A DNA stretch of 30,692 bases from a virus (lineage: Duplodnaviria; Caudoviricetes), in the IMG/VR virus record IMGVR_UViG_3300042387_001262, positions 1 to 30,692 of that record, one strand, 5' to 3'. Of this stretch, positions 1,737-3,550 are shown in pieces. Both the position numbers and the translations under genes were made by a program. The notes beneath the pieces were generated by a model, which worked only from the letters and a program-made list of their open reading frames with translations, did no database searches and was not told where the DNA came from. The stretch's first letter is position 1; each line of letters begins with the position of its first letter.

Positions 1737-1912
1737 GCAGGGACGGACTTCCATCGTCGTTCGACGCATGGCTCACGAACAACCCGGACGAGCAACCTGA
1801 CCCGCCCGAGTGCCGGTGTTGCCAACACCTGATGGAGTGGATCGACGACGCCGACGAGTGCGGACCGTGCGGATCTTGGGAGTGCATCAACGAAGACTGC
1901 CCCGGGCAATGA
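1733..1912 (+). CDS. Small Cys-rich acidic protein (59 aa, possible zinc ribbon); not in the ORF track
   Basis: GTG at 1733 after SD GGAGGTG; MSRDGLPSSFDAWLTNNPDEQPDPPECRCCQHLMEWIDDADECGPCGSWECINEDCPGQ; ends in an ATGA overlap. Confidence 0.65.
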   Translation: MSRDGLPSSFDAWLTNNPDEQPDPPECRCCQHLMEWIDDADECGPCGSWECINEDCPGQ

Positions 1913-2055
1913 ACGCTTACCGCATCACCATCGCCATCATCCTCGTCTCCCTTGCGTGCCTTGCCGGGTACGCCTGGGAGCGGGGCAAACATAAACGCTT
2001 CGCCCGTGCATGGGCAGAGGAGATACTGAACCCGACCTACACCCTAATCAAATAA
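1909..2055 (+). CDS. Small membrane-anchored protein (48 aa)
   Basis: ATG in an ATGA overlap; TM-like ITIAIILVSLACLAGYAW followed by basic residues. Confidence 0.55.
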   Translation: MNAYRITIAIILVSLACLAGYAWERGKHKRFARAWAEEILNPTYTLIK

Positions 2056-2060
2056 CAATA

Positions 2061-3353
2061 ATGTGGATACTCCCACGACCTATCATCAACCAACTCACAT
2101 CAGTCTTTGCTCCGGGTACGGAGGCATTGACCTCGGACTCAAACGAGTGCTCCCAGATCTGCGCACAGTCGCTTATGCGGAGATCGAATCAAGTGCCATC
2201 GAGCTCTTACTTGCGCGAATGGAAGGCGGGTCGCTTGACCCGGCTCCGATCTGGAGCAATCTGCGAACCTTCCCTTGGGGCGCATTTTCTGACCGAGTGG
2301 ACATCCTTTCTGGAGGTTATCCCTGCCAACCATTCAGCAGCGCAGGCAAACGACTCGGCGCCGACGACCCCCGTCACCTCTGGCCTGCCATCGCAGACGG
2401 CATTCGACTTCTCAGACCCCGAGTGTGCTTTTTCGAGAACGTCGAGGGGCACATTACGTTGGGACTCTCCAGCGTGCTCTCAGACCTGGAGGAGTTGGGT
2501 TACGAAGTGTCGTGGGGAGTATTCAGTGCGAGCGAAGTCGGCGCTCCTCACCAGCGCAAGCGAGTGTTCGTCATGGCCTACCGCGGCGACGAGGGACCAC
2601 AAGGGAGAGAGTGGCTCAGGCAGGCAGGAGCGCAATGTTGTGCTCAAGACGTGTGGCCAAGCCGACCAGGCGAACCCCAGCAGTGGTGGGAACCACCGCG
2701 AGTTGTGGCCAACCCCGGACGCAACGCAGGCCAACGACGGAGTGCCGTGGGAGAAGTTCCATCAGGGGATGATGGAGAGGCGGGAGCGTGTAAAGCAGGC
2801 AGTGGAGGAGGGGAGGACGAAGCAGGGGAGTGGGAGGAGTCCGAACCTTTGCGCAGCGGTGCAGAACCCGCAGTGGGCGACACCGGAGGCGAAGAATCAC
2901 GTGGGCTACCAAGTGGGGCAGGACGGGAAAGTGTGGCCGAGACTTGGCAGTCAGGTGACAGCATGGGCAACGCCTCAAGCGAGGGATGCGAAGGGAGCCG
3001 AGGGCAGGATGATTCGGGAGGGCAACCACTCGGATCTGCCATCGCAAACCGAAGTTGCTCCGACGGGTCAGTGGAACCGAGACAACGGCAAACTCAACCC
3101 ACGCTGGGTGGAAACGCTGATGGGGCTTCCGGTGGGGTGGACTATGGCCTCCTGTGCCGCGCCAGTGACAATCGCACTGATGAACTCCGTATGCTCGGAA
3201 ACGGAGTCGTCCCCGCAACCGCTGCCCGAGCCTTTGCCGTCCTCGCCGCCGACCTTGCAGCAGGATGCCCCGGTCGCCCCGAGCGTCCCGTCGTTGAGTG
3301 AGATTGCCGAGACACTGAGGCGCCTCGCTGACATGATTGAGCGCATCGTATGA
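2061..3353 (+). CDS. Overprinted beta-type methyltransferase polypeptide (motif IX plus W-x-T-[PA] repeats)
   Basis: 430-codon frame open across the whole MTase; contains KLNPRWVETLMGLPVGWT (motif IX-like) and SWPTA/LWPTP/QWATP/AWATP; its stop overlaps the next gene (ATGA at 3350-3353). The true start may be internal. Confidence 0.7.
   Translation: MWILPRPIINQLTSVFAPGTEALTSDSNECSQICAQSLMRRSNQVPSSSYLREWKAGRLTRLRSGAICEPSLGAHFLTEWTSFLEVIPANHSAAQANDSAPTTPVTSGLPSQTAFDFSDPECAFSRTSRGTLRWDSPACSQTWRSWVTKCRGEYSVRAKSALLTSASECSSWPTAATRDHKGESGSGRQERNVVLKTCGQADQANPSSGGNHRELWPTPDATQANDGVPWEKFHQGMMERRERVKQAVEEGRTKQGSGRSPNLCAAVQNPQWATPEAKNHVGYQVGQDGKVWPRLGSQVTAWATPQARDAKGAEGRMIREGNHSDLPSQTEVAPTGQWNRDNGKLNPRWVETLMGLPVGWTMASCAAPVTIALMNSVCSETESSPQPLPEPLPSSPPTLQQDAPVAPSVPSLSEIAETLRRLADMIERIV
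2063..3301 (+). CDS. C5 cytosine DNA methyltransferase, alpha-type polypeptide (motifs I-VIII and X)
   Basis: SLCSGYGG (I), GGYPCQPFS (IV, catalytic Cys), FFENVEG (VI), PHQRKRVF (VIII), LRMLGNGVVP (X); no motif IX in this frame. Confidence 0.9.
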   Translation: MDTPTTYHQPTHISLCSGYGGIDLGLKRVLPDLRTVAYAEIESSAIELLLARMEGGSLDPAPIWSNLRTFPWGAFSDRVDILSGGYPCQPFSSAGKRLGADDPRHLWPAIADGIRLLRPRVCFFENVEGHITLGLSSVLSDLEELGYEVSWGVFSASEVGAPHQRKRVFVMAYRGDEGPQGREWLRQAGAQCCAQDVWPSRPGEPQQWWEPPRVVANPGRNAGQRRSAVGEVPSGDDGEAGACKAGSGGGEDEAGEWEESEPLRSGAEPAVGDTGGEESRGLPSGAGRESVAETWQSGDSMGNASSEGCEGSRGQDDSGGQPLGSAIANRSCSDGSVEPRQRQTQPTLGGNADGASGGVDYGLLCRASDNRTDELRMLGNGVVPATAARAFAVLAADLAAGCPGRPERPVVE

Positions 3354-3550
3354 CCGACGACCAAGAGATCCGCGACGAGATGCTGAGCCTAGCCACGCAA
3401 CTGGCTAGGCTGATGCTTGAACTCGATGAGCCCCAGATGACCTACCTGGCGAAGTGTACCGGGGGCAACTTCGACGGGCAGACCATCGGGATTGCCGTGG
3501 TGCTCGCTGACCCCGAGAAAGAGGCGGAGATCGACGATGAGCTCGACTAA
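3350..3550 (+). CDS. Hypothetical protein (66 aa, acidic)
   Basis: ATGA overlap with the beta frame; typical codon usage. Confidence 0.6.
   Translation: MTDDQEIRDEMLSLATQLARLMLELDEPQMTYLAKCTGGNFDGQTIGIAVVLADPEKEAEIDDELD

Follow-up and report, generated by a model that had tools for sequence, protein, structure and literature searches.

Two overprinted viral reading frames that probably encode the two chains of one DNA cytosine-C5 methyltransferase

The locus and its surroundings

The window, by which we mean the whole stretch of 30,692 nucleotides analysed here, is a 30.7-kb linear virus record (IMGVR_UViG_3300042387_001262) with a completeness estimate of 70%, in which PHROG and Pfam matches identify ThyX, a terminase, a portal-type adaptor, a major head protein and tail genes. 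The sequencing runs that contain at least half of the stretch are lake-water metagenomes (six entries, four of them flagged as a possible source), and close relatives, found in a Verrucomicrobia MAG and in Geminisphaera colitermitum TAV2, offer a hint as to the host group of the virus. Among the listed runs with the stretch none is marked as RNA, and one, X8, is probably a DNA run. One contig spans the stretch with zero differences (run X1, possibly the source) and pieces identical to it occur in runs of other studies (X5, X6), which makes an assembly artefact unlikely.

Positions 2061–2066 read ATGTGG, and two long frames open there. The earlier note had claimed that both the ATG at 2061 and the GTG at 2063 are followed by more than 410 open codons; the first frame, which we call beta, runs for 430 codons to a TGA at 3351–3353, and the second, alpha, for 412 codons to a TGA at 3299–3301. 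Beta lies in the +1 frame relative to alpha and extends 2 nt beyond it on the 5' side and 52 nt on the 3' side, which leaves 1,239 nt common to both; over that length the third frame is broken by 12 stops. The features of the locus are as follows.

1909..2055, plus strand: upstream 48-aa ORF in the third frame, its stop 5 nt 5' of the beta ATG
2059..2066, plus strand: twin start TAATGTGG, in which a third-frame TAA overlaps the beta ATG and the alpha GTG follows 2 nt later
2061..3353, plus strand: beta, the 430-aa chain from the ATG, in the +1 frame with respect to alpha
2061..2315, plus strand: beta N-terminal extension, residues 1–85, over alpha motifs I–III
2063..3301, plus strand: alpha chain, 412 aa, GTG start, C5 cytosine methyltransferase body with motifs I–VIII and X
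2105–2125, plus strand: alpha motif I (LCSGYGG), with C where F is usual
2316..2573, plus strand: beta middle segment, over alpha motifs IV–VIII, with a long helix at residues 137–165
2321–2329, plus strand: alpha motif IV (PCQ), catalytic C88, by sequence
2435–2443, plus strand: alpha motif VI (ENV), by sequence
2552–2563, plus strand: alpha motif VIII (QRKR), by sequence
2574..3089, plus strand: beta array of four W-x-T-(P/A) modules (W172 at 2574, W216 at 2706, W272 at 2874, W302 at 2964)
2654..2707, plus strand: nearly invariant 18-aa alpha-frame element WPSRPGEPQxxWEPPRVV, in the variable region
3090..3143, plus strand: motif IX-like segment KLNPRWVETLMGLPVGWT in beta, invariant or nearly so
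3167..3235, plus strand: alpha motif X region, DNRTDELRMLGNGVVP...ARAF, including LGNGVVP, by sequence
3350..3550, plus strand: downstream 66-aa ORF, its ATG overlapping the beta stop as ATGA

The neighbours of the methylase gene are small ORFs without a family match in PHROG or Pfam, among them the upstream 48-aa and downstream 66-aa ORFs, and the methylase therefore looks like an orphan enzyme. A second in-frame TAA of the upstream ORF overlaps the beta ATG. The beta frame is open from an ATG at 2010, which was considered as its start and ruled out because homologs begin at the MW(I) position.

Further upstream, positions 979–1740 hold an array of small ORFs with repeated junctions, including a 196-nt duplication (1046–1241 versus 1333–1528, 91% identical) and a 22-nt junction of GGAGG plus start that recurs unchanged at 1498 and 1719; by its sequence it looks like a cassette array shuffled by recombination. 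ThyX is followed by a strong intrinsic-terminator-like hairpin of 14 pairs (561–600), and the one sigma-70-like promoter, 3' of the methylase gene, is at chance level only. Several palindromes containing CG have no site in the window (GTCGAC, ATCGAT, CGGCCG, CGCGCG and CGTACG, with roughly 6–16 expected of each), and k-mer bias marks AATT, CTAG, GATC and TGCA as depleted across its whole length, a pattern that suggests avoidance of several host restriction sites. No single candidate for the target site of the methylase stood out from the k-mer bias of the window.

The two chains and their parts

Alpha is readily recognized. Its residues 12–179 match Pfam PF00145 (E 1e-34), and the chain matches phrog_363 (E 5e-60), a family labelled DNA methyltransferase; against NCBIfam TIGR00675 it scores 95.1, under the cut-off of 100.65. 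The frame was expected from the earlier reading to carry motifs I, IV, VI, VIII and X and to lack IX, and this is what we find: all five are present, in columns that are invariant or nearly so among 112 sequences, and IX is absent from alpha. In the predicted model, which is confident at about residues 1–190 and 381–400, alpha aligns with M.HhaI over 198 residues (Z 18.5, rmsd 3.4), giving the large-domain fold, and matches M.HaeIII with an E of 1.3e-11. The motif X region forms helices at 370–380 and 384–399. No small domain is predicted in the alpha model, and pLDDT falls below 50 at 219–376, so that the long middle of the chain is predicted to be disordered. The 18-aa element occurs in 58 of 64 homologs, before motif IX and at a varying position.

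Beta is a more obscure protein. It matches phrog_1008 (E 1.5e-24), a family also labelled DNA methyltransferase, and scoring of 7,999 candidates gave 2,001 homologs; no match above cut-off was obtained for it in Pfam or NCBIfam. Its predicted structure has a mean pLDDT of 56.6 and gave no Foldseek match at E<=0.001, the PDB gave no sequence match, and the ESM Atlas returned only unnamed viral clusters with a low recognition score. The N-terminal extension, in which helices are predicted with low confidence, does not occur in the relatives whose betas start internally, and its profile matches 1,974 clusters (50% identity) at E<=1e-3. The middle segment, with a pLDDT of 80–86 at residues 141–160 of its helix, is common to the internally started nested betas of cultured phages, and a profile of this segment matches in Rita, Tadhana, N15, Papez, ST20 and R1.

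The modules number 0–7 per homolog, the last of them standing 28–48 aa before motif IX in 50 of 57 homologs (43 aa in the window). In C5 enzymes the TL motif stands 10–50 aa before motif IX and has the consensus PT(ILV), according to the available text of PMC2413257. Set against that consensus, the modules here read PTP or PTA: among 163 later modules W-x-T is followed by P in 140, and among 61 first modules by I or V in 18. We think it reasonably probable that the array is the target-recognition region of the enzyme.

The motif IX-like KLNPRWVETLMGLPVGWT that the earlier note had placed in beta was located there at 3090–3143. It aligns with motif IX of three canonical enzymes, and in Rita and Papez it stands at the place of the canonical IX; searching with a profile built from it did not retrieve those three enzymes, and Pfam gave no match either. 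On alignment and position, it is likely to be motif IX. Beyond it, beta ends in a helix (residues 412–429, window 3294–3353; pLDDT about 95) that most homologs lack, which has a weak match to DUF7433 under the cut-off and is possibly a captured remnant of a small downstream gene.

Conservation of both frames among homologs

When alpha is recoded synonymously, the +1 frame of the window sequence stays open over the whole gene with P=0.031, and alpha stays open under recoding of beta with P=5e-5. In a single sequence the open +1 frame thus exceeds chance only modestly, a weak signal, and for the part before motif IV, where the corresponding value in the window is P=0.31, homologs are needed to judge the overlap.

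The beta frame around motif IX is where, according to the earlier note, stops in homologs would count against the second chain; among 66 non-redundant homologs, beta runs without a break through IX in 64, the two exceptions being one that ends at a contig end and one that is frameshifted. (The frameshifted locus is L062, where at 2600–2700 both frames of the variable region are disrupted by a shift of one base, which may mark a pseudogene or an assembly error.) At the other end of the gene, stop avoidance is strict. Before motif IV, Leu and Val codons that precede A would create beta stops if they ended in G or A, and in 43 non-redundant alpha-selected sequences 0 of 112 do so, as against 74 of 193 in the single-frame genes of the window.

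Individual beta residues are also conserved. Across a tree of 66 sequences, 44 fourfold alpha sites have a median of 15 changes, and those that fix beta L38, W80, V147 and R157 have 0. C34 and R151 of beta are invariant (66/66) and W143 is found in 65/66. At L38, F76, R157 and P173 the codon varies synonymously in beta while the next residue of alpha changes, which points to a constraint on protein rather than on RNA. Judged from these substitution patterns, the beta extension upstream of motif IV is under selection in the clade of the window.

Further downstream the balance between the frames is reversed. Among 28 independent, de-duplicated close pairs, substitutions at alpha codon positions 1/2/3 are 266/119/490 over motifs I–VIII and 326/132/165 between VIII and IX, where 326 of 623 fall at beta third positions; the dominant frame therefore switches from alpha to beta between VIII and IX. 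Alpha is nevertheless kept open there, with 0 stops in 64 sequences versus about 576 expected, an expectation that derives from uniform recoding of beta and is a crude null for related sequences. The length of the variable region differs in 25 of the 28 close pairs; that this length is a multiple of 3 was dropped as evidence, being true by construction.

A shared start, and how the frames might be read

To the homologs we add a survey of the start in 78 loci picked by alpha only, including the near-identical twin of the window and some duplicates, of which 74 reach the start. In all 74 assessable loci the +1 frame has 0 stops up to motif VIII, and in all 74 a beta ATG lies 2–11 nt before the alpha start codon. 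The distance is 2 nt in 47 loci and 5 nt in 25; single loci have 8 nt and 11 nt, the latter (L040) read by eye. The 2-nt offset goes with an alpha GTG and offsets of 5 or 8 nt with an alpha ATG (CTG in two); that is, where alpha begins at ATG, the beta ATG is placed a codon or two further upstream. The two loci in which the alpha start appears to be CTG are L061 and L075 (ATGACCTGGAT). The presence of the beta ATG at several offsets indicates that the beta start has been kept through rearrangement. The 2-nt spacing of the starts in ATGTGG, which the earlier note singled out, is thus real in the window; it is not the sole solution, given the 2, 5, 8 and 11 nt within the clade, and given two other subfamilies in which alpha comes first and the spacing is mostly 4 nt.

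No Shine-Dalgarno sequence is seen at the twin start, which has A-rich sequence upstream; four small upstream genes do have one. The overlap of stop and start codons suggests that initiation at the twin start of the window is probably re-initiation after the stop of the upstream gene. Of 66 non-redundant loci, 41 have a third-frame stop no more than 2 nt from the beta ATG (as TAATG, TGATG or ATGA), so such coupling is not universal, and some of the upstream frames ending at the beta ATG are short. At the 3' end, the proposed coupling of the beta stop to the next gene is consistent with the overlap of that stop with the ATG of the next ORF (ATGA). Across loci, the next gene tends to couple to the chain that bears motif X, at the alpha stop in 32 of 55 and at the beta stop in 3 of 4. 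A TGATG after the beta stop was dropped as a coupled gene, its ATG being an alpha-frame Met.

Two further subfamilies, likewise selected by alpha, have the same whole-gene layout. In the MNELALFAGAGGG subfamily (80 loci, 49 non-redundant) the +1 frame is open and has an ATG 5' of motif I in 79 of 79 assessable loci, with a start offset of +4 in 30, and in a Shinella-like subfamily (80 loci, 7 non-redundant) this holds for 77 of 78 assessable loci. The Shinella-like genes are GC-rich and their third frame is also stop-free, so that the openness of the +1 frame says little there. The MNELALFAGAGGG subfamily has no fixed fourfold site in its extension (26 columns, minimum 4 changes), and a protein role of the extension is therefore not general. 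The simplest reading of these comparisons is that the extension mainly lets beta start at a shared initiation site, and that the constraint on its residues was gained in the clade of the window.

The survey bears on whether the 5' part of beta is translated at all. If the only beta made were one started internally, as in EcoHK31I, the 5' beta frame would be an open shadow or would reflect a constraint at the RNA level. The chance openness of this part in the window (P=0.31) agrees with that, as do the internally started forms of N15, Tadhana, Rita and Papez and the one subfamily whose extension is without residue selection. Such an account, however, meets the beta ATG in 74 of 74 loci and in several arrangements, together with the strict avoidance of stops; L38 and F76 vary only synonymously in beta, and past the start region the first Met of beta is residue 39 and the next is residue 237. 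We consider it extremely improbable, and take full-length beta as the likely product.

Whether the two frames are joined into a single polypeptide is a separate matter. Programmed frameshifting could carry ribosomes along alpha to motif VIII, into the +1 frame for the beta modules and IX, and back to alpha for X, which would restore the canonical motif order; frameshifting is left open, in the available text of Cresawn et al. 2015 (PMC4351075), for the related genes 6 and 7 of mycobacteriophage Corndog, whose overlapping coding potential is described there as allowing either two products or a frameshift. One shift would be enough for those relatives (5 of 64) whose beta carries motif X, but the window would need two. 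Frameshifting also leaves unexplained the conserved beta ATG and the selected beta residues before motif IV, as well as the missing alpha stops between VIII and IX, and a crude search for slippery runs downstream of motif VIII was negative, the single heptamer lying at 2925, inside the array. We therefore regard a frameshifted single chain as very unlikely, and the earlier suggestion that frameshifting could set subunit stoichiometry is not needed and accounts poorly for the conservation. Two separately initiated chains remain our preferred reading.

Parts that change frames

Of 64 homologs, 58 have motif X on alpha and 5 have it on beta; 1 is truncated. A Cys-rich insert near motif IX (CxxCxCC...CxxCxxHYxxCxC) was noticed in L005, L011, L018, L040 and L041, at their alpha C-termini, and in L068; in five loci this segment ends alpha, coinciding with the shift of motif X to beta, and it is possibly a zinc-binding module. 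Alpha ends early in Mundrea and in L097. Internally started betas occur in N15 gene 58, Tadhana, ST20, R1, Rita and Papez. In Rita and Papez beta-type segments also sit in-frame between motifs VIII and X, and alpha carries both IX and X; yet a nested beta with the middle segment and modules persists. This switching of parts between frames, while both frames persist, fits one enzyme made from two chains.

The same phages lend some weight to a different role for beta. Both proteins might be made with beta as a regulator, inhibitor or other partner, and with alpha working by itself or together with some host factor; neither Pfam nor structure comparison matches beta to methyltransferases, and its persistence in Papez and Rita means that it does more there than supply IX. 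Against this, alpha would be left without a predicted small domain, the beta segments are the same sequences that Rita and Papez hold in-frame between VIII and X, and the movement of motif X between chains fits one assembled enzyme. A separate job for beta is in our view unlikely.

Several of these frames have escaped annotation. Full-length betas are unannotated in phage C75C1, in Shinella PSBB067 and in the cultured Synechococcus phage Yong-M2-251 (OM868082), where beta has 371 aa and begins 7 nt downstream of the alpha start given in the record; a locus search with the Yong-M2-251 alpha as the single query protein gave no match. Within gene 58 of phage N15 (NC_001901; L188:1574–2218) we noticed an unannotated 214-aa +1 ORF with modules and an IX-like segment. 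In Escherichia phage ST20 (MF153391; L193:1303–2352) the beta frame is partly annotated, as hypothetical, and the 349-aa alpha was missed. In Streptococcus phage P0092, gp45 (L189:1457–1876) is an annotated +1 ORF nested inside a methylase that has a canonical TRD, IX and X on alpha; gp45 is a weak match to the beta middle segment and lacks motif IX.

A proposed two-chain enzyme

On the conservation of both frames, we are fairly confident that two separate proteins are made and act together as one orphan DNA cytosine-C5 methyltransferase. A single initiation region would serve both, with ribosomes picking ATG 2061 or GTG 2063, and both chains would come from one message without an internal start. 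Alpha would be the catalytic body and beta, with its modules and motif IX, the predicted small domain, or DNA-recognition half, packed on alpha via the conserved middle helix and, in the clade of the window, via the N-terminal extension. The middle of alpha would be a mostly passive linker, kept open so that motif X reaches the same chain. Other orphan phage methylases protect phage DNA from host restriction, and by analogy this enzyme may methylate the phage DNA to the same end.

The choice between the two starts could tune the ratio of the chains, a proposal to which we give slightly less than even credence. More doubtful, though worth stating, is a broader picture of a very large class of phage methylases with one ribosome landing site, in which each W-x-T-P module of beta reads a different target and start choice sets the ratio. 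If it were true, modules would be gained and lost with both frames kept open, and a phage could retune multi-site protection from host restriction inside a fully dual-coded gene.

To our knowledge, few same-strand overlaps longer than 1 kb are under selection in both frames, and in this case the overprinted pair seems to make up a single enzyme, each product being one half. At least three subfamilies have the layout, and annotation often gives only one chain, as in Yong-M2-251, C75C1 and N15. There is a practical consequence: if the annotated gene were cloned with a changed start, or recoded, beta would be lost and activity probably with it. The clade also makes the question raised for Corndog in 2015, two products versus a frameshift, testable, and it offers natural split methylases with exchangeable modules.

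Comparison with known systems

The closest parallel by description is M.EcoHK31I of E. coli HK31 (YGGCCR; Lee, Kam and Shaw 1995), an alpha/beta C5 enzyme whose alpha has motifs I–VIII plus X along with a predicted TRD, and whose beta, encoded inside alpha in another frame, has motif IX (PMC2836561 and PMC3404938, in their available text). Both chains are needed: once the beta start codons are taken out by silent changes, activity is lost (PMC2836561, likewise). The earlier note had proposed such a pair, and a second chain in an alternative frame with a IX-like segment, alongside an alpha with I–VIII and X, is indeed what the homologs have. It was also right in taking the whole-gene overlap as the unusual part: the M.EcoHK31I beta lies wholly in alpha, whereas here beta covers the full span of alpha and reaches past it by 2 nt at the start and by 52 nt at the end. 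A second difference concerns the TRD, which M.EcoHK31I has on alpha; here the selected variable region consists of tandem modules in the beta frame, and we predict a TRD on beta, since alpha 219–376 is predicted to be disordered and beta is the more constrained chain there, save for the 18-aa element that alpha keeps. The present genes are a widespread variant of the EcoHK31I design, which has so far been proven for that one E. coli enzyme; they probably work alike and depart from it in the nesting of beta and, probably, in the placing of the TRD. Two plasmid enzymes that we examined are single-chain.

M.AquI (CYCGRG) is a natural two-chain C5 enzyme in which the smaller chain has the recognition sequence and motif IX (PMC3404938, available text). 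That chain has X as well as IX, whereas the window has X on alpha, and 5 of 64 relatives have it on beta; unlike those of M.AquI, the chains of the window are overprinted along their whole length. Nested methylase pairs are annotated in Tadhana (gp54/gp55), Mundrea (gp78/gp77) and P0092 (gp44/gp45); in the first two pairs the beta segment is a homolog of the beta of the window. These three, and Corndog as described in the paper on it, share a second frame within a phage methylase, but their betas start internally. The labels of phrog_363 and phrog_1008 make no mention of overprinting or of possible subunits. For the whole-gene, twin-start form we found no account in the largely open-access literature searched, and overprinted methylases are not discussed in the available portions of PMC6070908, PMC2884959, PMC10885494, PMC3025963 and PMC5944983.

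The module array invites a further comparison. Like multispecific C5 methyltransferases, the present genes have several modules between VIII and IX whose number varies among close relatives; unlike in those enzymes, the modules are of PTP type and lie in the second frame, and their recognition role is a putative one. The multispecific enzymes are of Bacillus phage origin and are single chains with TL-type modules. Their tandem target-recognition domains were described by Trautner and colleagues, as cited in the available text of PMC2413257. Set beside all of these systems, what appears to be new here, from the comparison of sequences, is that the residues of the extension show selection in one clade and none in another, that motif X moves between the chains, and that the layout occurs in a cultured phage.
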